Source: Oscillospiraceae bacterium (GTDB lineage: Bacteria; Bacillota; Clostridia; Oscillospirales; UBA929). Taken from it: 64,000 nucleotides of DNA. The notes below the pieces were generated by a model. It made no database searches. It was not told the origin of the DNA and saw only the letters and a program-made list of their open reading frames with translations. Shown piece by piece: positions 5,016 through 45,754 of this stretch (the first letter of the stretch is position 1; every line of letters begins with the position of its first letter). The stretch spans positions 45,655-109,654 of the forward strand of contig JAVBTT010000006.1 of NCBI GenBank assembly GCA_031556035.1, read 5' to 3'. The position numbers were made by a program, and so were the translations under genes.

Positions 5016-5215
5016 ACAGGGACGCGGCCGGCTCCGCTCTTCGTCCATTGTCAAGCTCCGCGCGGCCTGTCGCTTCGGTCCCGCCTGCGTAGTCTGCGCC
5101 TACTACGGCAGACCCTGCGCTTTGTCCGTAAATAAGCCTGCGCGTGCTTACTTCGTAACCATGCTCAGCTTATTTACGGACCCGGCCGGCTCCGCTCTTC
5201 GTCCATTGTCATGCC
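5016..5215. repeat. B-family intergenic element: two direct copies of CCGGCCGGCTCCGCTCTTCGTCCATTGTCA flanking a 14-bp-stem hairpin (GTCCGTAAATAAGC...GCTTATTTACGGAC)
   Basis: The direct repeats at 5019-5047 and 5181-5210 and the perfect inverted repeat between them can be read directly from the sequence. The element sits between gerAA and gerAC and overlaps the 3' end of gerAA. Confidence 0.8.
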
Positions 5216-6739
5216 CTCCGGCCTGCGGCGCATGAACCTGAAAGGGAAGCGCAAATAAATGTCGGACTGGCTGCCCTTCCCGAACGAGAAAAGCTGCGAG
5301 GTGTAGTCTATCCCGAAGCTCTTTATGCTCTGCATGTACACCAGCAGCGCAATCAGGGACATGAAATACCCGTATACCCCGATTGTAGCCGCCGCCGCCA
5401 GAAACAGCAGCCTCAGAAACAGCACCGTCAGCTTGAGCCTGGGCAGCATAAGCCCGGTTATGCTTGTGAACGCCACAAGTATAACGGTCGGGGCGCTTAC
5501 AATCTTGGCCTCGACCGCCGCCTGGCCCAATACAAGCGCTCCCACAATGCTCAGCGCGGAGCCGATTTTGTCGGACATTCGCATCCCCGTCTCGCGCAGT
5601 ATCTCAAATACCGCGAGCATCCCCAGCAGCTCAACGACGGTGGGGAACGGCGTGCCCCTGGCGGCGGAGGTCAGGCTGAACATCAGGGTTGTGGGTATCA
5701 TCTCCTGGTGAAAGCCCAGCAGCGCGACATACAGAGCCGGAAGGCTGACCGTCAGCAGAAGCCCCGCCAGGCGCAGCAGCCGCCCGAACGAGCCGTAGTA
5801 GAAATTCAGATAGTAGTCGTCCGGGGACTGAAGATTTTCCACGAACAGATAGGGTACAGTCATCACCATTGGGGTGCCGTCAAGCAGCAGGGCTATCCGT
5901 CCCTCAAGCAGCTTGGAGGCTATGATGTCCGGCTTCTCGCTCTGCCCGGTTGTTTTGAAAATTGAGAACGGGGAGTCCTTTATCCTCTCATGTATGCTGT
6001 TTCCGTCCAGAGCCGCGTCGCAGTCTACGCCGTCCAGCCGCCTCTCCAGCTCCGCCAGCGCCTCCGGCTTTGCCAGGCTCTCCAGATAGCAGACGCAGGC
6101 CTTTGTGTTGGTGCGGGTGCCGAACCTGCGGAACTTGAACTTCAGGTCGGGAGTCTGGAGCTTGCGCCGCAACATGGAGATATTGATCATTATTGCCTCT
6201 GTAAAGCCCTCTCGGGGCCCGAGCAGGCTCTTGTCGTCGTCCGGCTCCGAGATGCCGCGCATGCTGAAGCCCTTGCTGTTGATGACAAGCGCCTCATCGC
6301 AGCCCTCCGCCAACAGCATCGTATCCCCGTAGAGGATCGATTCTACCAGTGTCTTGACGTCCCCGGTGCGCTTGATGTCGTTTCCCTTGACGACTTTTGT
6401 CTCGATGCGCTCCATGAGCCCTATGTTGCCCTGGAGTCCGCAGCTGGTGAGCGGCTCTATGATGTCGTCGTTGATGATCCGGGGGTTGACCATGCCGTCG
6501 AAGAACAGCAGGCAGGCCCGGAACGTGCTGTCACTGAGATTACCGATAAAACGCACACAAAGCGTGCCGTCCCCCTCAAAAAGCCCCTTCAGCATTGCGA
6601 TGTTCTCGTCCAGCTTTTTAGTAAGCCTGTAGCTGTCGTAGTTTATCCTGCCCGTGTTGTCCGCTGCCGCCGGCATTTGTCCGCCCTCCCCCCGGTGCGT
6701 TCTGGCGCGAAGGTTCGATATCGGGCTTAGAATGCTCAT
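5174..6739 (-). CDS. spore germination protein, GerAA/GerKA family
   Basis: 521 aa with the conserved GerA core (PDIIASKLLEGRIALLLDGTPMVMTVPYLFVENLQSPDDYY) and C-terminal TM helices. The last ~9 codons (DEERSRPGP) and the stop are encoded by the B-family repeat. Confidence 0.85.
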   Translation of the reverse strand: MSILSPISNLRARTHRGEGGQMPAAADNTGRINYDSYRLTKKLDENIAMLKGLFEGDGTLCVRFIGNLSDSTFRACLLFFDGMVNPRIINDDIIEPLTSCGLQGNIGLMERIETKVVKGNDIKRTGDVKTLVESILYGDTMLLAEGCDEALVINSKGFSMRGISEPDDDKSLLGPREGFTEAIMINISMLRRKLQTPDLKFKFRRFGTRTNTKACVCYLESLAKPEALAELERRLDGVDCDAALDGNSIHERIKDSPFSIFKTTGQSEKPDIIASKLLEGRIALLLDGTPMVMTVPYLFVENLQSPDDYYLNFYYGSFGRLLRLAGLLLTVSLPALYVALLGFHQEMIPTTLMFSLTSAARGTPFPTVVELLGMLAVFEILRETGMRMSDKIGSALSIVGALVLGQAAVEAKIVSAPTVILVAFTSITGLMLPRLKLTVLFLRLLFLAAAATIGVYGYFMSLIALLVYMQSIKSFGIDYTSQLFSFGKGSQSDIYLRFPFRFMRRRPEGMTMDEERSRPGP

Positions 6740-6828
6740 ACCGGCGCGGACTTATTCCAAACGGCAGGCTGGAAAAAGTTAGCGCAATGTCCTGTAAAAA
6801 CTGATGACGTGAAAAACAACCCTCTGTC

Positions 6829-7075
6829 CGAAGATGGGACGGAGGGTTGTTCAGACCGATGTCAAACTACAGTTTGTCATCGAAAACGAGGGCAAGCTGT
6901 CGCCGCTAAGGCGGCTAGCAAAGAAAGGCTTTCCCGGAGTGAATCCGTGAAAGCCTTGAATTTCAAGCTTTTTCACTCTTGCGGTCAAGCAAGAACCTGC
7001 CGCCTCCGGCGTCAGGCTCGACGCTCAAAAGTGAAAAAGGACGGAGGGTTGCGGACTTTGTCTACAGTCTCAAAA
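6829..7075. repeat. A-family structured repeat, copy A1
   Basis: The core is GACCGATGtCAAACTACAGTTTGTCATCGAAAACGAGGGCAAGCTGTCGCCGCT... with nested hairpins (GGCTTTCCCGGAGTGAATCCGTGAAAGCC; CTTTTTCACTCTTGC...GCAAAAGTGAAAAAG). The 13-bp GGACGGAGGGTTG sits at both ends. It is shared with copies at 14428, 38071, 55645 and 62882. Confidence 0.85.
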
Positions 7076-7142
7076 AATCCCGCGTCGTGCGCTTCGCTGC
7101 TCCTTGGGTTTTTGCTCACACGCGGGGGCTCCGCTCTTCTAG
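7076..7142. repeat. B-family repeat, 3' half-copy (…GCTCCTTGGGTTTTTGCTCACACGCGGGGGCTCCGCTCTTC)
   Basis: It ends in the GGCTCCGCTCTTC terminal motif and abuts the 3' end of the hydrogenase-like gene. Confidence 0.7.
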
Positions 7143-8407
7143 CCTTTCCTGAACGGCCTGGGCAAATACTCCTCGCTGCCCGGTTTTTCGCGCGTATAGA
7201 AAATACAGTCCTCCTCGCTGGCAAAGCCCAGCACGACGTCCTCGGCCAGAGAGCGGCAGCTCGGTGCGCCGCAAGACGCGCAGTCCAGACCCGGTAGGCG
7301 GGATTGCAGCTCCTCGATGCGGATCTGCTTGCGTATGGCGGCGTCAATGTCGTCGTCAAGCTGCCATATCGGCTTGTGGGCGAGCCCGACCTCGCGGCGC
7401 ACCGACTCGCCGCCCTCCGGCTCCTCATAGCGGTTGGAGGACACCGGCAGGTATTTCATCAGCGCCTTGACGCGGTTCTTAGCCGCGAACGGATTCTCCA
7501 CCGTAAGGCAGCCCCCCAGACAGCCCTGGGTGCAGGCCGCGATCTCCACAAAGTCAAACTCCTGGTAGTTGCCGTTTTCAATTTCCTCAAGGATGCTTAT
7601 CACGTTGCCTATCCCGTCGACCGACAGTCTGCTGCCGCTGAGCAGCGCTGAGCTCTCCCCTCCGCAGGCCGACCAGCCGATGCCCATAAGTCCGGAGGTG
7701 GCGAGCTGAGGCGGCTCCGGGTTCTTTTTCATGACCGGAAGCAGCCTTTTGTAGACGTCCCGCATTGATATCGCGCCGTCCATCACCTTGCCGGGGATTC
7801 CGACCGGGTGGTGGGCTGCCGTCATCTTCGCGGGGCATGGGGTTATAAAGAACACCCCCACCCTGTCCGGCGCGAGTCCGGTTCTCTCCGTCGCCTCGGC
7901 TCGCGCGCGCATTGCCGCCAGCTCGACGGGCGGCAGCAGCGGGGATATGTTCGGAATCAGCTTTGGGAACCTCTGGCAAATAAGCCTTACGCAGGCCGGG
8001 CAGGCGGAGGAGATCACCGGTTTGAGAGGATGCTCCCTCAGCTCGGCCCTTCCCAGGTCCGAAATCATCTCAGCCGCGCGGGATACCTCGTATATGGCGT
8101 CGAAGCCTATGTCCAGAAGGCCCCTGAGTATTATGTTGACGTTGTCCAGGTTGCGAAACTGCCCGTAAAGGCTGGGTGCCGGCAGGGCAACGTTGTATTC
8201 AAACTCGTCAAGCCGCTCAAAACCGTCGCAGACCGCCTGCTTTGCGTGGTGAGGGCAGACGCGGATGCACTCGCCGCAGTCAATGCAGCGCTCGCTGATT
8301 ATCGTGGCCTTGCCGTTTCGAACGCGTATGGCCTCGGTGGGACATCGCCTTATACACGTCGTGCAGCCCTTGCATTTGCTCTTGTCCAGCGTGACGCTGT
8401 GCTCCAA
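7139..8407 (-). CDS. [FeFe]-hydrogenase-like protein (Fe-hydrogenase large-subunit C-terminal-type domain with degenerate H-cluster motifs plus two N-terminal 4Fe-4S ferredoxin motifs); putative sensory or regulatory hydrogenase
   Basis: N-terminal CKGCTTCIRRCP and CIDCGECIRVCP ferredoxin motifs. Motifs resembling H-cluster L1, L2 and L3 but divergent (SSACPACV, FITPCPAK, EIAACTQGCLGGC), and a C-terminal extra Cys cluster (CASCGAPSCRSLAED). Operon context with DRTGG and HATPase genes. Confidence 0.75.
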   Translation of the reverse strand: MEHSVTLDKSKCKGCTTCIRRCPTEAIRVRNGKATIISERCIDCGECIRVCPHHAKQAVCDGFERLDEFEYNVALPAPSLYGQFRNLDNVNIILRGLLDIGFDAIYEVSRAAEMISDLGRAELREHPLKPVISSACPACVRLICQRFPKLIPNISPLLPPVELAAMRARAEATERTGLAPDRVGVFFITPCPAKMTAAHHPVGIPGKVMDGAISMRDVYKRLLPVMKKNPEPPQLATSGLMGIGWSACGGESSALLSGSRLSVDGIGNVISILEEIENGNYQEFDFVEIAACTQGCLGGCLTVENPFAAKNRVKALMKYLPVSSNRYEEPEGGESVRREVGLAHKPIWQLDDDIDAAIRKQIRIEELQSRLPGLDCASCGAPSCRSLAEDVVLGFASEEDCIFYTREKPGSEEYLPRPFRKG

Positions 8408-9949: not shown

Positions 9950-9972
9950 CTCTCGATTAATCTCTGCCCATT

Positions 9973-10806: not shown

Positions 10807-11155
10807 TAATACTTCCCCCAGCTTGTCCCGGATTATTCTCCGGGACTATTTTTATATTTCTCAGGAAATGGATTGCTGTTATGTAGTATGCTCCCCCTTT
10901 CTGTTTGCTGATCTCAGCAGGGGCGGATCTCGTGTCCGCCCTTCGCAATCGGTCAAGCTGCGCTCCCCGCTTGCGCTCAGCCTCCGCCTTCGCCGGGCTG
11001 CACCCGCCTTCAGCCGGAGTCTTCGCGTAGTTTCAAAATAACCTTCGTCGTGCACTGTGTTGCTCCTTGGTTATTTTTCAACGCGCGGGGGCTGCGCTCT
11101 TCGGGTTTAATTGACATAATCATATAGGCTATTTCCCAAGAAGCAAAGGGAAGCA

Positions 11156-14377: not shown

Positions 14378-14383
14378 AAAGAA

Positions 14384-14427
14384 GAGCGGAGCCGGGCGTG
14401 TCTCAAACAATCCAAGGAGCGGCGCCC
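14384..14427. repeat. B-family repeat, 5' half (AGAAGAGCGGAGCCGGGCGTGTCTCAAACAATCCAAGGAGCGGCG) immediately after the stop codon
   Basis: Starts 4 nt after the TAA of the SLH glycosidase gene. Same terminus as the copies at 15888, 17741, 42535 and 45754 (reverse). Confidence 0.7.
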
Positions 14428-14744
14428 TCTCAGACCCTGCGGGGCCAGCTCTCCCAAGGGGAGAGCCCAGGCCGATGACAAACTACTGTTTGTCATCGAA
14501 AACGAGGGCAAGCTGTCGCCGCTGAGGCGGCTCGCAGAGAAAGGCTTTCCCGGAGTGAATCCGTGAAAGCCTTGAATTTCAAACTTTTTCACTCTTGCGG
14601 TCAAGCAAGAACCTGCCGCCTCCGGCGTCAGGCTCAACGCGCAAAAGTGAAAAAGGACGGAGGTCGCGGACTTTGTCAGCAGCCTGATCTCTCCCTGTGG
14701 GAGAGGTGGCGCGAAGCGCCGGAGAGGGTGCGCCAGCCGTGGAG
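14428..14744. repeat. A-family structured repeat, copy A2, with flank modules Y (left) and X-revcomp (right)
   Basis: Same core as A1. The flanks CAGACCCTGCGGGGCCAGCTCTCCCAAGGGGAGAGCCCAG (left) and CTCTCCCTGTGGGAGAGGTGGCGCGAAGCGCCGGAGAGGGTGCGCC (right) are the exact reverse complements of the flanks of copy A3, but on the opposite sides. Confidence 0.85.
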
Positions 14745-15149: not shown

Positions 15150-15887
15150 GTGACACTTGAGGTTTTGGGCGTGGATACATACTGCACAATAGCGGGCTCC
15201 GGCCCGCATCTGGTTTTTCTCCACGGCTGGGGAGTGGGACACGAGCTATACGCCCCGCTGCTGGAGCATCTCCAAAAGACGCACACCGTCTTCGCGCCCG
15301 ATCTACCCGGCTTCGGCAAGACACCGGAGCCGCCGGAGCCGTGGGGCGTGGACGAGTATGTGTCGTTTTTGCTGGAGTTTATGTCAGCCGCGGGGGTCAC
15401 AGCCCCCGTCATGATGGGGCACAGCAACGGCGGGCGCGTACTGCTCAATCTGCTTCCCAGGCACGACACAGGCGCGAAGAAGCTTGTTTTAATAGCCAGC
15501 GCGGGCTTGAAGCCCAAACGCGGTTTAGGGTATTACGCCAGAGTCTATACTTATAAGGCGGGCAAGGCGGTTCTGACGCCGTTCCCTGGCCTGAAGCGCC
15601 GCCTGACTGAAAACCGGGGCTCGGAGGATTACCGCCGCGCGTCCCCTCTGATGAAGGCCACGATGTCGCGGCTGCTGTCCTCGGACGCGACCGCGCTTCT
15701 GCCTAAGATAAGCGTCCCCACCCTACTGATCTGGGGCGAGGACGACACCGCCGCGCTGCTTAGCGACGCGAAAATTATGGAACGCGCTATCCCGGACGCA
15801 GGGCTGGCCCAATTGCCGGGCGGCCACTGGGCGTTTATGGAGCAGCTGCCCCGGACGCTGAGGATATTGGACAGTTTTTTACAATAA
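15150..15887 (+). CDS. alpha/beta-fold hydrolase
   Basis: GTG start. Motifs HGWGVGHELYAPL and the nucleophile elbow MMGHSNGG. 245 aa. Confidence 0.8.
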   Translation: MTLEVLGVDTYCTIAGSGPHLVFLHGWGVGHELYAPLLEHLQKTHTVFAPDLPGFGKTPEPPEPWGVDEYVSFLLEFMSAAGVTAPVMMGHSNGGRVLLNLLPRHDTGAKKLVLIASAGLKPKRGLGYYARVYTYKAGKAVLTPFPGLKRRLTENRGSEDYRRASPLMKATMSRLLSSDATALLPKISVPTLLIWGEDDTAALLSDAKIMERAIPDAGLAQLPGGHWAFMEQLPRTLRILDSFLQ

Positions 15888-16038
15888 GAAGAGCGCAGCC
15901 GGGCGGGTCTGAAAATATCCAAGGAGAAACGAAGTGTACGACGCAGGATATTTTCAGACAAAGCGCAGGCGTTTGGCGTAGTCCGCAAAGCGGACGCAGC
16001 CAAAGCCGGAGCGGCAGCCCGGCGGGAGCTTGACAATG
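15888..16038. repeat. B-family repeat, full copy (AGAAGAGCGCAGCCGGGCGGGTCTGAAAATATCC…GGATATTTTCAGAC…GCGGCAGCCCGGCGGGAGCTTGACA)
   Basis: Starts right at the TAA stop of the hydrolase gene and contains a 14-bp-stem hairpin. It is the reverse complement of the copy at 45583-45754. Confidence 0.85.
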
Positions 16039-16095: not shown

Positions 16096-16168
16096 GCACT
16101 GTGGGTGCGCCGCATCCCCGCCCGCCGTATCTCACAACACCAACACAATCATCTCTGGGAGGGATTCA

Positions 16169-17734
16169 ATGCTCTGGATGCTCCTGTCAGTGTTTTTCGC
16201 GTCAGCAATGCTCGTCTCCCTGCGCTTTGTCCACATGCTCCAGCTCAGCTCCTATCAGACGCCGGGCTACCGCAAGTGGCTCAGGGAGAACGGCGCGGAT
16301 GTCTACAGGGCCATGGCACCGCTTGCTGTCGGCGCGTTGCTTGCCGCAATATTTGAGAATGAGTATATGGCTATTGCGGCAGCGGCGTCCATGCTGCTGG
16401 CCCTTGTTTTGCAACCGCGCAAAAAAGCGAAAAAGCCGCTGGTCTTTACGGGCAGGGTGGTGCGCCTGCTTGCGGCGCACGCGCTCCTGCTGGCTGCCCT
16501 CTGTATCGCGGCGTATTTCCTGTGGCTTGCCCCGTTTTTATGGCTTGGCCCACGGGTGCCGATAGCGCTGCTGTGCCTGTCCATGTTCGCGTCCGCCCAG
16601 ATCCTCATGGTGGCAAACTGGATCACCATGCCGCTGCAAAAGCTTATCAACGGCTTTTACCTCAGGGACGCCCAAAACAAGCTCGCCGCTGTCCCGAATC
16701 TGCTCGTGATAGGAGTCACCGGAAGCTACGGGAAGACCTCCGCGAAAGTGTTCCTGCACAAGCTGCTCTCCTCGCGCTACAACGTGCTGATGACCCCGGA
16801 GAGCTACAACACCCCGATGGGCGTCGTCCGGGCTATACGGGAGGGCCTTGAGCCGTCCCACCAGCTCTTTGTCTGCGAGATGGGCGCGCGGCATGTCGGG
16901 GACATAGCCGAGCTCTGCCGGATTGTGCGCCCCTCCCACGGCCTGATCACCTCCATAGGCCCCCAGCATCTTGAGACGTTCGGGAGCCTTGAGAACATAA
17001 TCAATACAAAATTTGAGCTGATAGACGCGCTGCCGCCCGAGGGCATTGCGTTTCTGGCGGACGGCAACGAGCATATACACCAAAGGCCGATATCCCGGCG
17101 CACCGTGCGCTACGCGCTGCGGGACGACACGGGGCTCGACTACCGCGTGACCGATATATCGGCGGACAGGCGCGGCAGCCGTTTTACAGTGACAACCAGG
17201 GACGGTGAGAGCCGGGAATTTCTCACCCCGGTGCTGGGACGGCATCAGGTAGAGAATATCGCGGGCGCGATTGCGGTGGCTCACACGCTGGGCATCAGTC
17301 TGGCCAAGCTCGCGCTGCCGGTCATGGGTTTGGAAAACCCGCCTCACCGTCTGAGGCTGATACGCGGCGGCGGCCTGACCGTGATAGACGACGCCTTCAA
17401 CGCCAACCCCGCCGGAGCCAGGGCCGCTTTGGACACTCTTGCAATGTTTTCCGGCGCCAAGATACTCGTCACCCCCGGCATGGTCGAGCTGGGAGAAAGG
17501 CAAAACGAGCTCAACCGCGAGTTTGGCCGGGACGCCGCCAGCGTGTGCGACTATGTGGCGCTGGTGGGAGTAAAGCAGACGCTGCCGATAGCAGAGGGAC
17601 TGCTTGAGGAAGGCTATCCGGAGGCAAGGTGGAGGGCGTTCGACACGCTCGGGCAGGCCATGGACTGGGTGCGCGGCCTGGACGCCGAGGACAAGGTTGT
17701 GCTGCTTGAGAACGATCTGCCGGATAATTATTGA
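16169..17734 (+). CDS. murF: UDP-N-acetylmuramoyl-tripeptide--D-alanyl-D-alanine ligase (MurF) with an N-terminal ~150 aa transmembrane extension
   Basis: Mur-ligase P-loop GVTGSYGKTS with central and C-terminal Mur domains. Followed directly by ddl. A GGGAGGG SD sits 5 nt before the ATG. Confidence 0.8.
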   Translation: MLWMLLSVFFASAMLVSLRFVHMLQLSSYQTPGYRKWLRENGADVYRAMAPLAVGALLAAIFENEYMAIAAAASMLLALVLQPRKKAKKPLVFTGRVVRLLAAHALLLAALCIAAYFLWLAPFLWLGPRVPIALLCLSMFASAQILMVANWITMPLQKLINGFYLRDAQNKLAAVPNLLVIGVTGSYGKTSAKVFLHKLLSSRYNVLMTPESYNTPMGVVRAIREGLEPSHQLFVCEMGARHVGDIAELCRIVRPSHGLITSIGPQHLETFGSLENIINTKFELIDALPPEGIAFLADGNEHIHQRPISRRTVRYALRDDTGLDYRVTDISADRRGSRFTVTTRDGESREFLTPVLGRHQVENIAGAIAVAHTLGISLAKLALPVMGLENPPHRLRLIRGGGLTVIDDAFNANPAGARAALDTLAMFSGAKILVTPGMVELGERQNELNREFGRDAASVCDYVALVGVKQTLPIAEGLLEEGYPEARWRAFDTLGQAMDWVRGLDAEDKVVLLENDLPDNY

Positions 17735-17740
17735 GAAGAG

Positions 17741-17855
17741 CGGAGCCCCCGCGCGTGAGCAAATATGCGACGAGCAGCGGGGAGCGCAGCTTGACATTAA
17801 AAAATCCCCCTGTCGGCCACAGGCCGACATCCCCCTTTGACAAGGGGGACATTGG
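17741..17855. repeat. B-family 5' half (GAGAAGAGCGGAGCCCCCGCGCGTGAGCAAATAT…) followed by D-family hairpins
   Basis: Begins right after the murF TGA stop and matches the reverse complement of the half-copy at 7076-7142. Confidence 0.7.
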
Positions 17856-25245: not shown

Positions 25246-25307
25246 ACAAAAATCCCTCACATCGACATTATTGCGGCGCGGCGTATCGCGCCGGGGCTCC
25301 GCTCTTC

Positions 25308-27224
<1,917 letters not shown>

Positions 27225-31592: not shown

Positions 31593-31713
31593 ATTTGAAC
31601 AATGGGGATATTACATAGCACCTTAAAGATGGCGGCAGACGTCTGCCGCCAATCATCAAACCATCGGGAAGGAATACGGCGGGCGAGGTGGTAGGCTCCC
31701 GGCTCCGCTCTTC

Positions 31714-33150
31714 TTAATACTGAAATCCCCAGTACAGCATCGTGTCCGCCGGCTTGCCGCAGACGGCGCAGGTTTCGCCCAGCCTTTCCTGCTCAAACGG
31801 GATGTTGCGCGACTTCATGCCTCCGGTGAGATCCTTGACTCTCTCCTCGCATTCCGCCCCGCCGCACCACATGGTCTTGATGAAGCCGCCGCGCTTCTGC
31901 GCGATAGTGACCATCTCCTCCAGGGTGAGCGCGACGCTTATCTGGCTGTCCAGGTTTTTGCGGGCCTTGTCGTACATAGCCCTTTGTATTTCTGATAGAG
32001 CCTCCGGCACCCTAAGCTCCAGCCCCTCAAGCGAAGCCTCCTCCTTGCCGCCGGTGCGCTTGGCGAGCACACATCTGCCCGCCTCAATATCACGCGGGCC
32101 GAGCTCCAGCCTGAGCGGCACGCCCTTCATCTCGTACTCGGCGAACTTCCAGCCGGGCGACTGGTCGGAGGAATCGAGTCTGACCCTGATGCCCGCCGCC
32201 TTCAGGTTCTTTTCCACCTCGGCTGCCTTTTCCAGCACGCCCGGCTTGTGCGAGGCGACCGGGACTATGACGACCTGGGTGGGCGCGATGCGGGGGGGCA
32301 GGACGAGCCCGGAGTCGTCCCCGTGAGTCATTATTATGCCGCCGATGATCCGGGTCGAGACGCCCCACGAGGACTGGAACACGTGCCTCAGCGAGTTATC
32401 CTTAGCTGTATATGTGATATCGAACGCCTTCGCGAAGCCGTCCCCGAAGTAGTGGGTGGTGCCGGCCTGAAGGGCCTTGCCGTCGTGCATCATGCACTCG
32501 ATCGAATATGTGTCCTGCGCGCCCGCGAATTTCTCGCTCTCGGTCTTGCGGCCTTTGATGACGGGCATCGCCAGCACGTCCTCGGCGAGCTCGGCGTATA
32601 TATCAAGGATCATCAGCGCCTCGTCGACGGCTTCCTGAGCCTCGGCGTGCGCCGTGTGGCCTTCCTGCCACAGAAACTCCCTGTGCCGCAGGAACGGGCG
32701 GGTGGTCTTCTCCCAGCGCAGCACGCTGCACCACTGGTTGTAGAGCTTGGGAAGGTCGCGCCAGCTCTGCACCACATGCGCGTAGTGCTCGCAAAACAGC
32801 GTCTCGGACGTCGGGCGCACGCAGAGGCGCTCGGCCAACTGCTCTGTTCCGCCGTGCGTGACCCAGGCCACCTCGGGAGCGAAGCCGTTGACGTGGTCCT
32901 TTTCCTTCTGAAGCAGGGACTCCGGGATCAGCAGGGGCATATAGACGTTCTCGTGCCCCGTCTCCTTGAAGCGGGTGTCCATGTAGTGCTGTATCCGCTC
33001 CCAGAGCGCGTAGGCGTATGGCCTCAGCACTATGCAGCCCTTGACGCTCGAGTAGTCGATAAGCTCCGCCTTTTTTACAACGTCGGTGTACCACTGGGCG
33101 AAATCCTCCTCCATGGAGGTGATCGCCTCAACCTGCTTTTTATCCGCCAT
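31714..33150 (-). CDS. proS: proline--tRNA ligase (archaeal/eukaryotic-like type ProRS)
   Basis: Start trimmed to the ATG at 33150 ([25 protein letters not shown]…), leaving 478 aa. Class II motifs and a C-terminal zinc-binding ending in YWGFQY are present. The 711 aa ORF in the track extends into repeat DNA. Confidence 0.9.
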
Positions 33151-33209
33151 AAAAACCCCCCCATTAAATTCCATGTAGGGGCGATTATCAATCGCCCATT
33201 CGCAAGAGA

Positions 33210-33424
33210 CCCGCCCGGCTGCGCTCTTCGGTGATGTCAAGCTCCCGCCGGGCTGCCGCTCCGGCTTTGGCTGCGTCCGCTTTGCGGACTGCGCCAAACG
33301 CCTGCGCTCGGCTCCAAATAATCCTGCGCGTGCCCGCTTACGCTCTGTCAAGCGGACTTCGTCCGCTCTTCGAGCTTGCGGCCATGCTCGGCTTATTTCT
33401 CGCCACGCCCGGCTCCGCTCTTCT
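33210..33424. repeat. B/C-family repeat, long form with GTGATGTCAAGCTCCCGCCGGGCTGCCGCTCCGGCTTTGGCTGCGTCCGCTTTGCGGACTGCGCCAAACGCCTGCGC… module, both termini GGCTSCGCTCTTC
   Basis: Near-identical copies at 38372-38642 and, in the opposite orientation, embedded at 15888-16038, 42535-42708 and 45583-45754. It yields a recurrent artefact ORF ([25 protein letters not shown]…). Confidence 0.85.
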
Positions 33425-36181: not shown

Positions 36182-36281
36182 ACTTTGAAATAAACAGTTT
36201 CACTCCCGCTCGTCTGCGCATACGATATATTGCGGGGGAGGGGCGTAGCCCATCTCCCGAATAAAGCGTGGAAGCGAAGGG

Positions 36282-36797: not shown

Positions 36798-36920
36798 TTC
36801 TCAGCGGATTTCCGTAAAAAGGCCCCAGTTCGCAAATTTCCCTTGCAAACCCCTCCCGGCTGCAATAGAATGTATCGGGGCATGCCGCGTCCGGCCCGTC
36901 CAACGGAAGGGGGATTGCAG

Positions 36921-38054
36921 TTGTTTGAATCGTTAAGGCAGTGGAAAAAATATATACTGCCCTTTTCGCTCGCCGTGTTTATTTTCGCGTTCATCACAAG
37001 CTATGACGGCACTATGCATCTGCTGCGCAGCGTGTTCGGCTGGCTCGGCTTTATACTGAGCCGGTTTCTGCTTGGGTTCGCGATGGCCTACATGGTGGAC
37101 TTCCTGGTGGAGTTTCTTAAAAAGCGCCTCAAATTTCCGCGCTGGCTCGCGATCGGAGCCTCCTATGTCCTGCTGCTGGGCCTGTTGGTCTGGATGATAC
37201 TCTACATAGCCCCTCTGACGGTGGAGAGCGTGAACCAGATCATAACGGTGCTCACCGACGCGTACGGCAGGTTTACGGGCTATCTGGCCGACTCTGAGCC
37301 TCTGATCGACCCGCAGATGTTCGACATGCTGACCGGGCTGCTGGACGGCATAAAGGAGAGTCTGCTCTCCGTGCTGAAGGGGCTGCTGGACTATTCCTTC
37401 ATCGAAAGCGCACTGAAGATATCCACCCGGATGCTGATGAACATCTCCTTCGGCTTCCTGATCTCCCTGTATGCGATTATTGAGAAGGAGCCCCTGCTGC
37501 GCAACGCCAGGGCGATAGTCAGGGCGCTTTTCCCCAAGCGCTCCCCGCGGATATTTGAGCTGGCGGGAGAGGCCAACCGCACATTTTCCCGCTTTTTGGT
37601 GGGCAAGACAGTGGACTCCCTGATAATCGGCCTGCTCAGCTATATCCTCTACATGATATTCAGGCTGCCGATCTCGCCGTTCCTGGCTGTCGTGGCGGGG
37701 GTCACAAATATGATCCCCTACTTCGGCCCGATTGTGGGCGGGGCGGTCACGGTACTGCTACTGATCTGCTACCAGCCGATTTACGCGCTGTACGGGTTGA
37801 TCATAGTCGTGGCCGTCCAGACGGTGGACGGCATGGTGCTCGGCCCGAAGATACTGGGCGACGCGGTGGGCATAAGCCCGCTGCTCACGATTTTCGCGAT
37901 CTCCATAGGCGGGGATGTGGCGGGCTTCCTGGGGATGTTCATAGGGGTGCCGGTGCTCGCGGTGTTTAAGAAGATGATTTACCACACATTTATTAAGAAG
38001 AGGATGGCCTCGAGCGAGGCCTCCGGGCCTCCGGCCGCGCCTGACGGCGGATGA
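36921..38054 (+). CDS. AI-2E family transporter (PerM/UPF0118)
   Basis: C-terminal signature IPYFGPIVGG…GGDVAGFLGMFIGVPVLAV. TTG start at 36921 chosen after a GGAAGGGGG SD. The track ORF starts further upstream at 36843. Confidence 0.75.
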   Translation: MFESLRQWKKYILPFSLAVFIFAFITSYDGTMHLLRSVFGWLGFILSRFLLGFAMAYMVDFLVEFLKKRLKFPRWLAIGASYVLLLGLLVWMILYIAPLTVESVNQIITVLTDAYGRFTGYLADSEPLIDPQMFDMLTGLLDGIKESLLSVLKGLLDYSFIESALKISTRMLMNISFGFLISLYAIIEKEPLLRNARAIVRALFPKRSPRIFELAGEANRTFSRFLVGKTVDSLIIGLLSYILYMIFRLPISPFLAVVAGVTNMIPYFGPIVGGAVTVLLLICYQPIYALYGLIIVVAVQTVDGMVLGPKILGDAVGISPLLTIFAISIGGDVAGFLGMFIGVPVLAVFKKMIYHTFIKKRMASSEASGPPAAPDGG

Positions 38055-38070
38055 GGCCGCGCCCGGCTGC

Positions 38071-38371
38071 ACACCCTCTCCGGCGCTTCGCGCCACCTCT
38101 CCCACAGGGAGAGCTCAGACCGATGACAAACTACAGTTTGTCATCGAAAACGAGGGCAAGCTGTCGCCGCTGAGGCGGCTCACAGAGAACGGCTTTCCCG
38201 GAGTGAATCCGTGAAAGCCTTGAATTTCAAGCTTATTCACTCTTGCGGTCAAGCAAGAACCTGCCGCCTCCGGCGTCAGGCTCGACGCGCAAAAGTGAAA
38301 AAGGACGGAGGTCGCGGAATTTGTCTTCACTCTGGGCTCTCCCCTTGGGAGAGCTGGCCCCGCAGGGTCTG
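38071..38371. repeat. A-family structured repeat, copy A3, with flank modules X (left) and Y-revcomp (right)
   Basis: Core identical to A2. The left flank CACCCTCTCCGGCGCTTCGCGCCACCTCTCCCACAGGGAGAG and the right flank CTGGGCTCTCCCCTTGGGAGAGCTGGCCCCGCAGGGTCTGAGAGGG are the reverse complements of A2's right and left flanks. Confidence 0.85.
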
Positions 38372-38642
38372 AGAGGGTGCTGCTCCTTGGTTATTTTTCA
38401 ACGCGCGGGGGCTGCGCTATTCGGGTGATGTCAAGCTCCCGCCGGGCTGTCGCTTCGGCTTTGGCTTTGTCCGCTTTGCGGACTGCGCCAAACGCCTGCG
38501 CTCGGCTCCAAATAATCCTGCGCGTGCCCGCTTACGCTCTGTCAAGCGGACTTCGTCCGCTCTTCGAGCTTGCGGCCATGCTCGGCTTATTTCTCGCCCC
38601 GCCCGGCTGCGCTCTTCGGGTGATGTCGGTGAGTTTTCCGAG
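38372..38642. repeat. B/C-family repeat, long form (near-identical to 33210-33424)
   Basis: Direct sequence identity over more than 200 nt. Confidence 0.85.
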
Positions 38643-38820
38643 CTTTCAAATTTTTTGATAGCGTTTCCTGCTGAAATAGGGTAAAATGTCTATATGACCG
38701 CATAACCGCCTCGGTTTTCCGGGGCGCACGCTGTTATTGCGCCGGAACAGGAAACAGGGATTTTTTATGTCTGCCGAAAGGCGCAATACTGTTCAAAAAC
38801 ACACAAATGGGGGTTCACAG

Positions 38821-41304: not shown

Positions 41305-41307
41305 CAG

Positions 41308-41343
41308 CCGTCAACATGGCCGCCGAAGGCGGCCATGTTGACG
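41308..41343 (+). terminator. perfect 16-bp-stem hairpin downstream of gyrA
   Basis: CCGTCAACATGGCCGCC-GAAG-GCGGCCATGTTGACG. No U-tract. Confidence 0.5.
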
Positions 41344-41391
41344 TTGACCAAACGTCTAACCCTCATTTAGAGGGGATCGGGGGCGGAATGC

Positions 41392-42042
41392 ATGAAGAAT
41401 AAGCTCTGGCAGATTGTGGGCGCGGCGGCGGGCATGTCCGGCGGGCACGACCTGAGCCATGTCCGCAGGGTGTACAGGCTAGCGATGCGCCTCAGCGACT
41501 TTTACCCGGAGGTGGACAGGGAGCTGCTGACCGCCGCGGTCATACTGCACGACATAGCGAGGCGGGAGGAGGACGACGACGCCTCCGGCATTGTCGACCA
41601 CGCGATGCTGGGCGCTGAAAAGGCCGAGCAGATACTGCTGGAGCTGGGCTGGGACGCGGAGCGCGCGTCCGCAGTTGCGGCATGTGTGCGCTGCCACCGT
41701 TACAGGGGCGAGGAAAACGCTCCGCGCACGATAGAGGCGAAAATCCTCTACGATGCGGACAAGCTGGACTGCCTTGGCGCCGTCGGCGTCGGGCGGCTGT
41801 TCATGCTTTCGGGGCAGTACGGCGAGAGGCTTTACATCGAGCCCCCGGCGGGCTTCGGCAGGGACGGTCACGCCCCCAGGATAAGCGAGTTTGCCGAGTA
41901 CAGCCCGAACCTCGAGTACCTTCTGAAAATGCGGCACATACCCGAAAAGCTTTTCACGCAGGCCGCGCGGGACATCGCCGCCGTGCGCATGGCGAGGATG
42001 GACAGATTCTTCGAGGAGCTGAAAGAGGAGATTGAGGGATGA
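41392..42042 (+). CDS. HD-domain phosphohydrolase
   Basis: H…HD motif (HVRRVY…ILHDIAR) and DADKLD. Confidence 0.8.
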   Translation: MKNKLWQIVGAAAGMSGGHDLSHVRRVYRLAMRLSDFYPEVDRELLTAAVILHDIARREEDDDASGIVDHAMLGAEKAEQILLELGWDAERASAVAACVRCHRYRGEENAPRTIEAKILYDADKLDCLGAVGVGRLFMLSGQYGERLYIEPPAGFGRDGHAPRISEFAEYSPNLEYLLKMRHIPEKLFTQAARDIAAVRMARMDRFFEELKEEIEG

Positions 42043-42110
42043 GGGAGAAATGATTTCGCCGCCCGAAGGGAGGCGAAATCACACAAGACTTTTCCACACC
42101 CGGAGGAACA

Positions 42111-42560
42111 ATGAAAAAAGTCACGATCTATACTGACGGGGCCTGCTCAGGCAACCCGGGGCCCGGGGGCTGGGGCGCGATACTCAGCTACGGCGGGCGC
42201 GAAAAGGAGCTGTCCGGCGGTGAGAGCCCCACTACCAACAACCGCATGGAGCTGACCGGGGCAATAGAGGCGCTGAGGGCGCTGAGGGAGCCCTGCGAGG
42301 TGGAGCTGTATTCGGACTCTCGCTACCTGGTCGACGGGATAACCAAGGGCTGGGCCAGATCCTGGAAGGCCAGGGGCTGGATAAAGGCGGACAAGAAGCC
42401 GGCGCTGAATCCGGACCTGTGGGACGCGCTGCTGGAGCTGCTGGAAAGGCACGAGGTCAGGTTCCACTGGGTGCGCGGCCACTCCGACAACGAGAAAAAC
42501 AACCGCTGCGACCAGCTTGCCAGGGAATATATTGAGAAGAGCGGAGCCGGTCGGGTCTGA
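42111..42560 (+). CDS. rnhA: ribonuclease HI
   Basis: [25 protein letters not shown]…ELTGAIEAL…[18 protein letters not shown]. The last 7 codons (EKSGAGRV) plus the stop come from the B-family repeat. Confidence 0.85.
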
Positions 42561-42708
42561 AAATATCCAAGGAGAAACGAAGTGTACGACGCAGGATATT
42601 TTCAGACAAAGCGCAGGCGTTTGGCGTAGTCCGCAAAGCGGACGCAGCCAAAGCCGGAGCGGCAGCCCGGCGGGAGCTTGACATCACCCGAAGAGCGGAG
42701 CCGGGCGA
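42535..42708. repeat. B-family repeat, full copy, overlapping the rnhA 3' end
   Basis: GAGAAGAGCGGAGCCGGTCGGGTCTGAAAATATCC…GGATATTTTCAGAC…GAAGAGCGGAGCCGGGCG, with both termini present. It is followed by a GC-rich palindrome cluster at 42716-42880. Confidence 0.85.
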
Positions 42709-43033
42709 GTGAAAAAAAATCCCAGGGGATGCCGCGCCCCGCGGGGACGACCACCCCGCCGCGCGTCCGCGCGGCACCCCTCCAGGGAGGGGAATTACCC
42801 GTAGCGTCTCCATCCCCCTCCTGCGGAGGGGTGGGCCCGCAGGGCCGGGGTGGTTCCCATATCCCACGGAAATCGACATTTTCGTTGCATCTGCACTTTA
42901 CAAAGAGCATGGCCAGCGCTATAATTGTTTTGCAAAGGAAACAATCAGATCAATTATAACTACCATGAACATAATACGGGCATTGCCCGTTCAGCATAGA
43001 GGGCATTTCGACTTACAGAAAGAAGGATAATCG

Positions 43034-44212
43034 ATGTTTGTATACGCGGACAACGCCGCGACCACAAAGCTCAAAAACAGCGCGCTGGACGCCATGCTGC
43101 CTTGGTTGACGGACGGATACGGCAACGCCTCCGGCTTCTACTCTATAGCAAGGGACGCCAGACGCGCCGTTGAGGACGCGAGGAAGACAGTCGCGGAGGC
43201 GATGGGCGCCAGACCCGAGGAAATATACTTCACCTCGGGAGGCACGGAGGCCGACAACTGGGCGCTGAAGTGCGCCCTCCCCGAGGGAGGCACGCTAATT
43301 ACAACCGAGGTGGAGCACCACGCGGTGCTGCACACGGCGCAGTATCTCGGGAAAAACCGCAGGCAGGTCATATATCTTCCGGTCGACGAAAAGGGGCATG
43401 TCATAGAGGACGAGATGGACAGGGCGCTTGAGCAGCCGCCGGCCCTTGTGTCAATCATGCACGCCAACAACGAGATCGGCACAATTCTCGGGGTCAACGA
43501 GCTGTTCGCCAAGGTCAAGACCAGATGGCCGAAGGCCCTGACGCACACAGACGCTGTTCAGGCGGTGGGGCATGTCCCGGTCAGCCTTGAGTTTGTGGAC
43601 ATGCTGTCCATGTCGGCGCACAAGTTCGGCGGCCCCAAGGGGGTCGGAGCGCTGTATATCCGCAGGGGCGTCAGCCTGCCGCCGCTGCTGCACGGGGGCG
43701 GGCATGAGCGCGGCAAGCGCTCCTCGACCGAAAACGTGGCGGGGATCGTCGGGATGGCCGCCGCGCTCCGGGAGGCTGTCAATAAGCTTGACATTGCGGC
43801 GGGGAAGACGAAAAGGCTGCGTGATAAGCTGATTGACGGTGTGCTGGCAATACCCTACAGCTTTTTGAACGGCGACCGTGAGGTGAGGCTCCCCGGCAAC
43901 GCCTCGTTTATATTTGAGGGCGTGGAGGGCGAGAGCCTTGTGCTGGGTCTGGACGCCAAGGGAGTATGTGCCTCTTCCGGCTCGGCCTGCTCGTCCGGCA
44001 CGCTGGACCCGTCCCATGTGCTTATGGCGATCGGGCTGCCCCAGGAGGTCGCCCACGGCAGCCTCCGGCTGAGCCTGAGCGAGGACAATACCGAGGAGGA
44101 GGTCGCGTATATGATCGAGGCAGTCGCTGAGATCGTGGCGCGCCGCCGCTCAATGAGCCCGCTGTGGGACGAGAGGGAGCAGAAGCCGACCGAAAGGTTC
44201 TGGAGCAAGTAA
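43034..44212 (+). CDS. cysteine desulfurase (NifS/IscS family)
   Basis: Class V aminotransferase with the PLP Lys motif (SAHKFGGPKG) and active-site Cys (SSGSACSSG). Confidence 0.9.
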   Translation: MFVYADNAATTKLKNSALDAMLPWLTDGYGNASGFYSIARDARRAVEDARKTVAEAMGARPEEIYFTSGGTEADNWALKCALPEGGTLITTEVEHHAVLHTAQYLGKNRRQVIYLPVDEKGHVIEDEMDRALEQPPALVSIMHANNEIGTILGVNELFAKVKTRWPKALTHTDAVQAVGHVPVSLEFVDMLSMSAHKFGGPKGVGALYIRRGVSLPPLLHGGGHERGKRSSTENVAGIVGMAAALREAVNKLDIAAGKTKRLRDKLIDGVLAIPYSFLNGDREVRLPGNASFIFEGVEGESLVLGLDAKGVCASSGSACSSGTLDPSHVLMAIGLPQEVAHGSLRLSLSEDNTEEEVAYMIEAVAEIVARRRSMSPLWDEREQKPTERFWSK

Positions 44213-44280
44213 ACATAATGTATTATATTACAATGCTGACGATATATAATACTAGAAGTATATTATAAGGAGATATCCAG

Positions 44281-44733
44281 ATGCTGTACACCGACAAGGT
44301 AATGGAGCATTTCAACAATCCGCGCAACGTCGGAGAGGTCGAAAACTGCAACGCCGAGGGCACTGTGGGCAATCCGAAGTGCGGAGATATCATGAAGATA
44401 ACCATGCGCATCGAAAATGACAGGATTGAGGACGTGAAGTTCAAGACTTTCGGTTGCGGCGCGGCGGTCGCCACCTCGTCGATGGCTACCGAGCTCGTCA
44501 AGGGCAAGACGGTGAGCGAGGCGCTGGGACTGACAAACCGCGCGGTGGTGGAAGCCCTTGAGGGCCTGCCGCCGCAGAAGATACACTGCTCTGTGCTGGC
44601 GGAGGAGGCTATCAAGAGCGCGATAGCTGACTACTACAAGCGCCGGGGCATAGACCCCGCCCCCATACTGGGCTGCGACGCGGACTGCGAGAGCTGCCAC
44701 AGGGAATACGAGGAGCACTATTTCGAGAAATGA
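44281..44733 (+). CDS. nifU: Fe-S cluster assembly scaffold (NifU/IscU N-terminal-domain type)
   Basis: YTDKVMEHFNNPRNVG…GNPKCGDIMKI…FKTFGCGAAVATSS…HCSVLAEEA, the three conserved Cys. Confidence 0.9.
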   Translation: MLYTDKVMEHFNNPRNVGEVENCNAEGTVGNPKCGDIMKITMRIENDRIEDVKFKTFGCGAAVATSSMATELVKGKTVSEALGLTNRAVVEALEGLPPQKIHCSVLAEEAIKSAIADYYKRRGIDPAPILGCDADCESCHREYEEHYFEK

Positions 44734-44915
44734 TTACAATTAGTTGATCCCCCGGCCGCAAGGCTGGGGGATCATCTATGTTAAGGGGAGGGAGGCTCAC
44801 GCCTTCGGCTGCCCGGCATTACATCATACGGCGGGGGCAAAGGCGTTGTTCTCCCTGAATATGGAACCCGGAACCGCGCGGTTGCAAATGGCCGCGCGTT
44901 TTAAAGATAATCAGG

Positions 44916-45545
44916 TCACACGAGCGGCTTCCTTTTTATCTGGGCCCAGGGGCGGGGATAAATTTTATTAGTAAAAGTAATTTTTAACACTGTTATTACA
45001 TTGTGTAAAGTGCCGTCCGACAGCTCGTAGATATAGTCTTCGCCGCGCTCCCCGCCTAAAAGCCGGTACGGGGCGCTCTCAAACGCGGTGGATTTCATCG
45101 CGAGCAGAACCCCGCCAGGCTTCAGCAGCGGAAGGGCCAGCTCGCACAGCAGCGGCAGGGAGGCGACCCCGCGCGCCGTTACGATGTCAAAGCTCTCGCG
45201 GGCCGGGCCGTGGGCGTACTCCTCGGCGCGCCCGTGGACGCAGGCGACATCCCGGAGGCCGAGCGCGTCCGCGACGCGGCGCAGGAACTCCACCTTCTTG
45301 CCTGTGCCGTCCAGCAGGGTCAGCGCAATCGACGGCTCGGCGATTTTCAGCGGAAGCCCGGGAAAGCCCGCTCCGGAGCCAAGGTCCAGCACGCGCCTGT
45401 TCCTGAAGTCCGCGCAGCCGAGGAGCTTGAGGCTGTCCTCAAAGTGGCGCACTCGGATTTCCTCCGGCTCGCGTATCGCGGTCAGGTTCATCACAGCGTT
45501 GGCCTCAAGCAGGAGGGACAGATAGAGATCGAATTGCTCGTCCAT
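44916..45545 (-). CDS. rsmG: 16S rRNA (guanine527-N7)-methyltransferase RsmG (GidB)
   Basis: SAM motif VLDLGSGAGFPGLPL and overall GidB length and sequence. Confidence 0.9.
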   Translation of the reverse strand: MDEQFDLYLSLLLEANAVMNLTAIREPEEIRVRHFEDSLKLLGCADFRNRRVLDLGSGAGFPGLPLKIAEPSIALTLLDGTGKKVEFLRRVADALGLRDVACVHGRAEEYAHGPARESFDIVTARGVASLPLLCELALPLLKPGGVLLAMKSTAFESAPYRLLGGERGEDYIYELSDGTLHNVITVLKITFTNKIYPRPWAQIKRKPLV

Positions 45546-45582
45546 AGAGTACCGCCTTTGATGATGGTTGTGGTACGGCGGG

Positions 45583-45754
45583 CTTGGCTGCGCTCTTAGG
45601 TGATGTCAAGCTCCCGCCGGGCTGCCGCTCCGGCTTTGGCTGTGTCCGCTTTGCGGACTGCGCCAAACGCCTGCGCTTTGTCTGAAAAATATCCTGCGTC
45701 GTGCGCTGCGTTGCTCCTTGGATATTTTCAGACCCGCCCGGCTCCGCTCTTCTC
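45583..45754. repeat. B-family repeat, full copy (reverse orientation relative to 15888-16038), fused to the mnmG 3' end
   Basis: GGCTGCGCTCTTAGGTGATGTCAAGC…GGATATTTTCAGACCCGCCCGGCTCCGCTCTTCT. Confidence 0.85.

Follow-up and report, generated by a model that had tools for sequence, protein, structure and literature searches.

The 64-kb window analyzed here (positions 45,655 to 109,654 of contig JAVBTT010000006.1, from an Oscillospiraceae bacterium) carries a family of short structured repeats, the 13-mer family, whose members share short conserved termini and mostly dock on the 3' end of a gene, in the same orientation as that gene and in several cases with no nucleotide between the stop codon and the repeat. 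The family amplified recently in this lineage; it has replaced the native ends of rnhA, mnmG and gerAA, whose reading frames run 8-13 codons into the element, and the operon context of the units requires that they are co-transcribed with their host genes. We regard the family as a lineage-restricted, recently amplified, non-autonomous repeat of the REP (repetitive extragenic palindrome), BIME (bacterial interspersed mosaic element) or MITE (miniature inverted-repeat transposable element) kind, which probably integrates in a strand-specific manner beside AT-rich T-R-A sites, a reading to which we assign a probability of about 0.6. The host is an uncultured, gut-type member of the Clostridia related to the Butyricicoccaceae; its RNase HI is ~77% identical to that of Intestinibacillus and its MnmG ~66% identical to those of Agathobaculum and Butyricicoccus.

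Termini and modular build of the repeats

A motif scan with shuffles retrieved 16 matches to AGAAGAGCGGAGCC at ≤2 mismatches in the window, where 0.82 were expected, and 14 occurrences of the exact 9-mer GAAGAGCGG (1.16 expected); the partner 3' motif GSAGCTTGAC was present nine times (0.40 expected). For both termini the counts lay above every shuffle. One 5' match, at 18949 inside ddl, is a chance match with two mismatches, leaving 15 true copies of (A)GAAGAGCGSAGCC, and a 3' match at 7355, within a gene, is likewise due to chance. Each member starts with (A/C)GAAGAGCGSAGCC, 5' (A)GAA-GAGCGSAGCC, and ends in 3' GSAGCTT-GACA.

Rather than one element of ~170 nt, as a first, sequence-only reading of this DNA had assumed, the repeats form a modular family with members of 30-190 nt when all copies are set in one orientation. 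The interior between the termini ranges from a 3-nt loop (the mini-element GAAGAGCGGAC-GAA-GTCCGCTTGACA, nested in units I1 and J1) through one small hairpin (forms F and G and the copy after gerAC) to two long hairpins (seven full units of 148-189 nt, typically ~150 nt; Table 1). Units stack head to tail on one strand with linkers of 5-7 nt, TCACC(C) or ATGGAC, and other repeat families are interspersed among them. With a covariance model derived from five units, the seven full units were recovered at 109-191 bits, together with the copies that are degraded or short (B, F and D), and nothing else convincing was found in the window. Repeat DNA accounts for ~4-5% of the origin-proximal region.

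The string GCCCGCCGTAY occurs exactly three times in the window, at 16120-16130(+), 31674-31684(-) and 45573-45583(-), each time 3' of a 13-mer array whose orientation it shares, with weak extended similarity. As a defined right end it was rejected, having almost no extended similarity; it may be a short right-hand module or a coincidence.

Docking at stop codons and promoters

Distances were counted to the initial G of GAAGAG, starting at the final base of the stop codon. By this measure 10 of the 13 array heads are docked on the 3' end of a same-strand gene, at -27 to +3 nt, and the names of the flanking genes were borne out by Pfam. Four heads begin 0 nt from a TAA or TGA stop (the hydrolase gene at 15887, murF at 17734, gyrB at 25308 and proS at 31714), two lie at -1 nt, the G of TAG being common with the motif (the Fe-hydrogenase-like gene at 7139 and gerAC at 3768), one lies at +3 nt (the SLH/NAGPA gene at 14377) and three reach into the reading frame (-25 nt at rnhA and mnmG, -27 nt at gerAA). 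Under a null in which heads are placed at random in non-coding DNA or the final 30 nt of genes, a mean of 0.78 heads would fall within -27 to +3 nt of a same-strand stop; 9 of the 12 heads first tested did so (binomial tail 3.8e-9), and for the five exactly abutting heads the binomial tail is 7.7e-10. The gerAC site was added after this test as the tenth docked head. The sequence-only reading had placed the motif at or within 4 nt of several stop codons, and it was right about the hydrolase, murF, gyrB, proS and SLH genes but wrong about the AI-2E transporter gene, where the stop at 38054 borders no 13-mer but the antisense array J at its far end, in the form of a truncated sub-terminal segment rich in GC. 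The bias to gene 3' ends and to the sense orientation is strong within the 64-kb window, as that reading had predicted.

Orientation is sense to the gene in 12 of the 13 heads, and both orientations are found on each side of dnaA/oriC. Since orientation tracks the gene strand to either side of the origin, the rule is tied to transcription or to the target sequence and not to replication; a replication-strand bias acting through lagging-strand single-stranded DNA was ruled out for this reason. Heads C and I1, plus one copy on a related metagenome contig (L025, described below), lie 3-16 nt 3' of a -10 box, sense to the promoter.

The AT content of the 5' flanks is 0.76, compared with 0.54 at other gene ends (p = 0.003), the base at -1 is A in 10 of 11 non-tandem heads, and the flank usually ends in T-R-A. 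In rnhA an out-of-frame TGA abuts the element, and in mnmG a TAG lies one nucleotide upstream. The junctions are equally describable as 1-8 nt of microhomology with the element's AGAAGAG (13 sites).

Three observations concern the surroundings of these sites. The genes dnaA-dnaN-recF-gyrB lie on the minus strand (25308-31410), with an AT-rich spacer between dnaA and proS (31411-31713), from which the window probably includes oriC; gyrA stands apart from the gyrB cluster (38737-41304, +). No T-box leader was detectable at proS, and its 5' region consists of two repeat units behind a promoter (33453-33426, -; 11/12 sigma-70-like, extended -10). Array I starts 2 nt after this promoter, which places the predicted proS transcription start within the 13-mer. 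The end of the flavodoxin/ODP gene (33862-34983) reads ...GGAAATAA CC GAAGAG ATATTTG (33853-33864, -), a bare GAAGAG 2 nt past the stop without the rest of the motif, which may be a decayed copy or an unoccupied target-like site.

Replacement of native protein ends

The rnhA and mnmG products both end in an element-encoded ...SGAGRV, and the gerAA product ends ...DEERSRPGP as part of a 13-residue element-derived tail. In all three the tail is encoded by the repeat, lies outside the conserved domain and is missing in repeat-less orthologues, being absent from all ~240 orthologues compared.

None of 119 RNase HI orthologues, mostly of 145 aa, carries EKSGAGRV, and the closest (80% identity) ends ...LAREYINTNR. 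The relative L026 is syntenic at this locus (HD gene, rnhA, aminotransferase gene) and has a 67-nt spacer where the window has ~470 nt of repeats. In the window the UGA stop of rnhA lies within the 5' arm of hairpin 1 of unit K1. MnmG is conserved among 119 orthologues as far as ...ALMIxLE, after which unrelated short tails follow; the two closest proteins end LEKRV (L002, GAG AAG AGA GTG TGA) and LEKEKRHENS (L027). As GAGAAG pre-exists in both L002 and L027, the E-K codons of mnmG are native, the GAAGAG of the element overlapping this GAGAAG, and only SGAGRV with its stop comes from the element. The two tails are identical, presumably because both genes were fused in the same frame to near-identical units.

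In GerAA, a protein of 521 residues, the GerA Pfam domain stops at residue 508, and the last 13 codons of the gene are, over 37 nt, 95% identical to the array's internal linker-terminus junction at 5020-5056 (family D17). The gene continues into a unit's 3' end plus linker and not into a 5' terminus, a fusion most simply explained by a secondary deletion. The frame of rnhA and mnmG meets UGA after 8 element codons, and that of gerAA meets UAA after 9 codons in the A1 variant.

Of the claims made for these tails by the sequence-only reading, the element-encoded tail shared by rnhA and mnmG holds for SGAGRV but not for the E-K codons of mnmG, and the gerAA end is as described, with the fusion made to a different part of the unit. 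The comparison of orthologues that it had proposed found EKSGAGRV absent, and the tails are therefore not native.

Native stop codons have been kept by gyrB, proS and the SLH gene. The ProRS-C Pfam match reaches the last residue of ProRS, the alignment of GyrB with full-length solved GyrB chains runs through to their final residue, and the SLH gene and its L003 orthologue share the end ...CTGTTTTTCTAA. Syntenic empty sites were found for rnhA (L026), mnmG (L002, L027), and the SLH gene and the parB promoter (L003).

These data bear on the trivial explanation, namely that the motif recurs by chance, or that the tails are native sequence and the repeats misassembled or chimeric. Repeats do trouble assemblers, and the short-read Logan contig L001 breaks just within the element. 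However, L001 is an independent assembly and contains the same rnhA-element junction, the motif counts exceed every shuffle, the copies differ by compensatory substitutions and the tails are absent from the ~240 orthologues, so that this explanation is effectively refuted.

Fold, covariation and transcription

The full unit folds into a closed Y (-69 kcal/mol, z = -6.0), in which a foot helix and a closing helix enclose two hairpins. The foot, of 4-5 bp (GAGC/GCUU, in GAA-GAGC...GCUU-GACA), contains an invariant G.U pair and never varies; the closing helix, of 7 bp, co-varies. All eight units that were folded showed the Y architecture, and in all of them the sense strand was stabler than the antisense strand by 3.6-10.8 kcal/mol. 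In an independent MAFFT alignment of five units, evaluated against 500 shuffles and slid controls, 94.4% of cells were paired (84.2 ± 1.5% in shuffles) and double-sided changes were present in 13 of 43 pairs, compared with 5.2 ± 1.6 in shuffles, of which 0/500 reached 13, and 1-4 in slid controls. The compensatory changes are spread across the closing helix and both hairpins, and the closing helix switches en bloc between a GCCGGGC/GCCCGGC and a CCCCGC/GCGGGG subfamily. The co-variation noticed earlier in one hairpin stem is thus real and extends to three further helices, and these controls support the earlier suggestion that selection acts on structure over sequence.

No unit contains a T-run or terminator-like site in the sense orientation. 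Intercistronic copies are found in gerAA-gerAC-gerAB, murF-ddl and mnmG-rsmG, genes that are adjacent or overlapping in relatives. With no T-run and with these operon positions, the units must be transcribed through, and a role as intrinsic (Rho-independent) terminators was rejected on the same evidence. Other possibilities were also set aside. The 3' TTGACA has no -10 at 16-18 nt in any junction and does not qualify as a -35 box. A small peptide in the hairpin-1 loop (Shine-Dalgarno sequence AAGGAG, 7 nt, GTG and a 15-codon frame in E and K1) was ruled out by inspection, the start codon and frame not being kept in L1, B or C. By eye, GAAGAG shows only a partial likeness to a Shine-Dalgarno or anti-Shine-Dalgarno complement, and the hairpin-1 arm only a partial likeness to a CodY box, with a stem sequence that varies between copies.

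Distribution and relatives

Searches by motif, BLAST and covariance model retrieved no copy in ~54 kb from five relatives with 70-83% protein identity (L002, L003, L026, L027 and L028), compared with 15 copies in the 64 kb of the window, where copies at unlinked loci share 95-98% identity. In 185,579 species-representative genomes (source genome excluded), a 20-nt terminus pattern gave 19 single chance matches only, and L013, checked as a possible carrier of the family, was discarded as chance. There was no match in plasmid and phage collections (BLAST) or in viral contigs (two-terminus gapped pattern), and none between the six-frame translation of a unit and 5.8 billion proteins. Rfam 15 returned nothing at gathering thresholds over the whole window and nothing relevant at E<=1 over 33100-46000, and a tRNA/tmRNA search of the window found none.

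Among metagenomes, the only related match of the two-terminus gapped pattern was L025, a JGI contig of ~50% GC (by eye); L023 and L024 were chance matches. L025 carries three units with the same termini and unrelated interiors, located in non-coding DNA among toxin-antitoxin and sortase genes, and one of these units scores 18.4 bits with the covariance model (E about 0.01). Since the L025 units share the termini and not the interiors, it is the termini that define the family. RelB/YoeB and MazE-like toxin-antitoxin genes adjoin the repeats at 3379-3913 and 5419-5748 of L025, which also contains a separate repeat, CTTATGTCCGTCATTGCGAGCCGC..GCGAAGCAATCCAG, in two copies at ~4150-4290.

Differing interiors would also be expected of site-specific recombination cassettes, in which a dedicated recombinase would use the 13-mer, or the junction GCTTGACA-N5-7-GAAGAGCGSAGCC, as its core site and would insert or exchange short modules between such sites, as in the intergenic mosaic elements of Neisseria (NIMEs) or in integron attC arrays. 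Unrelated modules do stack head to tail, each with one and the same short direct repeat, GAGCGSAGC, on either side, solo 13-mers end arrays (L2) or stand alone (G, H), and the core-like GAGAAGAG is already present at the empty mnmG site. We nevertheless consider cassettes very unlikely. Neither in the window nor in L025 was an integrase or recombinase found, the empty sites at rnhA, the SLH gene and the parB promoter are without core-like sequence, and the flanked genes, such as gyrB, proS, murF and mnmG, are core housekeeping genes rather than cassettes. The termini, compared by eye with the consensus forms, are also unlike attC R''/R' (RYYYAAC/GTTRRRY) and dRS3 (ATTCCC-N8-GGGAAT).

Integration or selection on the transcript

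The reading that we prefer, strand-specific integration, could account for the placement in the following way. Insertion would be directed to, or resolved by microhomology at, short AT-rich sites, immediately 3' of ...T-R-A; in a genome of 60% GC, the AT-rich T-R-A sites at which insertion is tolerated would mostly be real stop codons. With an asymmetric target of this kind, found mainly at stops, the sense orientation and the zero-nt spacing would follow automatically, and the protein tails would be neutral by-products. On the transcript, a very stable helix is predicted to start 3-4 nt past the stop codon and, by analogy with the REPs of E. coli, should slow termination and/or guard the upstream cistron from 3' exonucleases. 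A more far-reaching version is speculative and, in our view, unlikely: the invariant termini would be the recognition site of a dedicated strand-specific integration machinery that homes directly 3' of T-R-A, with stop codons and -10 boxes as safe harbours, the 5' end of the element would be adapted for a quick stop of translation when it lands a few codons early, and the RNA fold 3-4 nt past the stop would control termination and decay of the host gene.

Several points weigh against integration. Apart from an unrelated IS4 fragment at the window edge, no transposase, recombinase or Y1/RAYT (REP-associated tyrosine transposase) gene was detected among the ~48 open reading frames of the window or those of L025. 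Neither a target-site duplication nor long terminal inverted repeats could be defined; at arrays with known empty sites there is no consistent target duplication, and right boundaries are blurred by stacking and by other modules. It is the distribution of the copies that points to mobility, and the counts come from 13 array heads in one 64-kb window plus one related contig (L025). Targeting to T-R-A draws on few independent junctions, which microhomology-mediated joining explains equally well. A secondary deletion has to be assumed for gerAA, which is joined to a unit's 3' end, array J runs antisense, and the minimal forms at gerAC and gyrB are equally readable as a functional stop-motif-hairpin signal, not as decayed elements.

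Such a signal would belong to a host-selected cis-acting RNA module, whose foot (GAA-GAGC...GCUU-GACA) would be read by an RNase or RNA-binding protein and would mark cistron boundaries, the copies being kept by selection for setting mRNA 3' or 5' ends, intra-operon differential stability or translation-termination efficiency. Besides the minimal forms, this would suit the 12 of 13 heads that are sense to transcription whatever the replichore, the sense strand that always folds better (the invariant foot G.U would be A.C on the other strand), the termini conserved in two organisms with unrelated interiors, the three copies at predicted transcription starts and the regulation of translation by REPs lying <16 nt from a stop (PMC12306157). 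However, the motif is absent after orthologous genes in relatives of 74-83% protein identity and is thus not a conserved host signal, and native C-termini are broken up where copies have landed. Selfish amplification typically yields near-identical, nested, truncated and tandemly stacked copies such as these, and the out-of-frame T-R-A at the rnhA and mnmG junctions points to placement directed by DNA sequence. We consider selection on the transcript an improbable origin of the pattern and retain integration as the preferred reading.

Whichever explanation applies, gene callers will report element-encoded C-termini for RNase HI, MnmG and GerAA, and short-read assemblies break at these repeats. 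The window offers an unusually clean case of small structured repeats at zero distance from stops and in one orientation. Should integration specificity lie behind the placement, a new rule of target choice would be defined for non-autonomous elements of bacteria; should selection on the transcript lie behind it, REP-type control of termination and operon mRNA stability would extend to gut Clostridia.

Inventory of copies and neighbouring repeats

Table 1 Copies of the 13-mer family, the protein tails derived from them and copies of the D2 repeat (window coordinates unless stated; scores from the covariance model)
Feature	Position	Strand	Score (bits)	Description
Minimal form after gerAC	3745..3768	-		Stop TAG shares its G with GAAGAGCGG; interior a 6-bp mini-hairpin, GGCATT-ACCA-AATGCC, then the Shine-Dalgarno sequence and GTG of gerAB; outside the range of the sequence-only reading
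Array A, gerAA/gerAC interval	4898..5214	-	141	Linker remnant CATGACAATGGAC 5214-5202; full unit A1 5200-5049; linker ATGGAC; divergent second unit A2 5042-~4898, ending AAAGAGCGGAGCTTG
gerAA tail, last 13 codons and stop	5174..5214	-		GMTMDEERSRPGP and stop; element linker plus 5' terminus
Unit B, truncated	7070..7140	-	36	Joined to a D2-family element; G of the TAG stop (Fe-hydrogenase-like gene 7139-8407) is also the first G of the motif
Unit C	10920..11103	-	134	CCCCGC...GCGGGG subfamily; mini second unit GAAGGGCGGAC..GTCCGCC; 5' region of parB-like gene, 16 nt 3' of its -10 box; empty site in L003
Unit D	14380..14443	+		Cut in hairpin-1 loop by D2 composite; 3 nt past native TAA of SLH/NAGPA gene
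Full unit E	15887..16035	+	191	Abuts TAA of alpha/beta-hydrolase gene, upstream of murF
Short unit F	17734..17796	+	28	Abuts TGA of murF, murF/ddl interval; foot, closing helix and one small hairpin; CCCCGC...GCGGGG subfamily
Minimal form G	25268..25308	-		13-mer and small hairpin CCGGCGCG-ATAC-GCCGCGCCG; abuts native TAA of gyrB
Collapsed form H	31674..31714	-		5' terminus fused to 3'-end-like GGGAGCCTACCACC, then GCCCGCCGTAT; abuts native TAA of proS
Array I, proS leader	33175..33424	-	110	Unit I1 33423-33235; linker TCACC; unit I2 33229-~33175; nested mini-element of I1 at 33371-33346, tip of hairpin 1
Array J	38360..38618	-	109	J1 38617-38429 (97% identical to I1); linker; J2 GAATAGCGCAGCC... 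cut by D2 composite; only array antisense to both neighbours (AI-2E transporter gene, gyrA)
Array K, 3' of rnhA	42535..42860	+	189	Full unit K1 42536-42683 (95% identical to E); linker TCACCC; divergent GC-rich unit K2 42690-~42860
rnhA tail, last 8 codons and stop	42535..42560	+		(E)KSGAGRV and stop; read from 5' terminus of K1
Array L, mnmG/rsmG (gidB) interval	45586..45753	-	179	Full unit L1 45752-45604; linker TCACC; solo second 13-mer TAAGAGCGCAGCC at 45598-45586
mnmG tail, last codons and stop	45728..45753	-		EK-SGAGRV and stop; SGAGRV and stop from 5' terminus of L1
D2 copies in window	6828-7094(-), 14444-14710(+), 38092-38358(-), 55640-55834(+), 62878-63098(-)
D2 copies in L003	14181-14283, 18719-18860

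The D2 repeats in Table 1 form an unrelated family of ~220-270 nt with several perfect internal hairpins, for example CGATGACAAACT/AGTTTGTCATCG. At D and J2, D2 lies inside a composite, CACCCTCTC.../...GAGAGGGTG, that breaks the 13-mer unit in the hairpin-1 loop. D2 is also present in a relative of 74% identity, including a position 3' of the orthologous SLH gene, and is therefore older or more widespread than the 13-mer family. A third small module, ATCCCCCTGTC-hairpin-GACATCCCCCTT..AAGGGGGAC, lies directly 3' of units E and F (16044-16095 and 17804-17864, +), and its second copy, upstream of ddl, scores as a sigma-70-like promoter (TTGACA-16-TATTTT).

The C-terminal part of an IS4-family DDE transposase runs off the window edge at 63331-63996 (-) and is flanked by an 18-bp hairpin (63124-63161), with no similarity to either repeat family; the fragment was rejected as a parent element, sharing nothing with the 13-mer family. 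Elsewhere, a 140-nt direct duplication of 82% identity (61710-61849 and 62568-62707, +) lies in the SLH/papain-like peptidase gene 60243-62837 and is presumably a repeated protein domain.

Relation to known systems

Rickettsia palindromic elements (RPE) are found in-frame inside open reading frames and are translated throughout. The 13-mer units resemble them as structured repeats translated within host proteins, and differ in that only 8-13 terminal codons are supplied and most copies lie outside the reading frame. Neisseria NIMEs consist of variable RS modules of 50-150 bp bounded by one short repeat and form intergenic mosaics; this short repeat, dRS3, is a 20-bp sequence with its own inverted ends and a target of phage integration. 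By description, then, modules bounded by a short conserved repeat are common to NIMEs and to our family; we know of no stop-codon docking or closed Y-shaped fold described for NIMEs.

In several respects the family is like the REP/BIME sequences of Enterobacteria and Pseudomonas. Both consist of structured extragenic repeats in high copy number, in which a hairpin has a conserved single-stranded motif at its foot, and both show compensatory changes and mosaic arrays, occupy 3' untranslated or intercistronic sites and are transcribed with the operon. REP/BIME elements are structured and mosaic, and many lie within 15 nt of a stop codon (PMC2817692, PMC12306157); in E. coli, a REP <16 nt from the stop makes terminating ribosomes stall and reduces expression, and REPs have a stabilising effect on upstream cistrons as well (PMC12306157). 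Unlike REPs, which are palindromes of 20-40 nt, the units described here measure 60-190 nt and form closed multi-helix structures, the longest (150-190 nt) having three helices, and they are stacked head to tail where BIME and REPIN arrays alternate (inverted). Their termini, GAAGAGCG / GCTTGACA with the flanks GAA-GAGC / GCTT-GACA, are not of the GTAG type, their 0-nt stop spacing and strict sense orientation set them apart, and no RAYT gene was seen in the 64-kb window. Only the minimal form G, the gerAC form and the nested mini-element are REP-like. The family also departs from MITEs, the termini being asymmetric, with only a 4-bp foot and a 7-bp sub-terminal helix complementary, and the one insertion-sequence fragment of the window (IS4 family) sharing nothing with them.

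The closest parallels to the protein tails are other small non-autonomous repeats that overlap gene 3' ends and supply C-terminal residues. By removing a native stop, ERIC (enterobacterial repetitive intergenic consensus)/RU-1 units lengthen the C-terminus of a protein outside its conserved domain, as in the ECA3499 amidase (+35 aa; PMC2759123), a likeness that extends to RU-2, and in Coxiella burnetii QMITE1/QMITE2 overlap gene 3' ends by 1-50 bp (ubiB, mutT, recN and ruvB), with 33 aa added to EnhC (PMC5896051). Unlike the 13-mer units, ERIC and RU elements have terminal inverted repeats and QMITEs also direct repeats; they share no sequence similarity with the 13-mer family, and neither a strict sense orientation nor a zero-spacing rule is reported for them. 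As the family fails defining features of REP/BIME sequences, classic MITEs and terminators and has no match in Rfam, we regard it as a new family of a known kind. Together, these comparisons show that the kind of element and its side-effect on protein tails are already known in other bacteria, and that the family itself is new, distinguished by invariant asymmetric termini, head-to-tail stacking, strict sense orientation and docking on stop codons at zero nucleotides.

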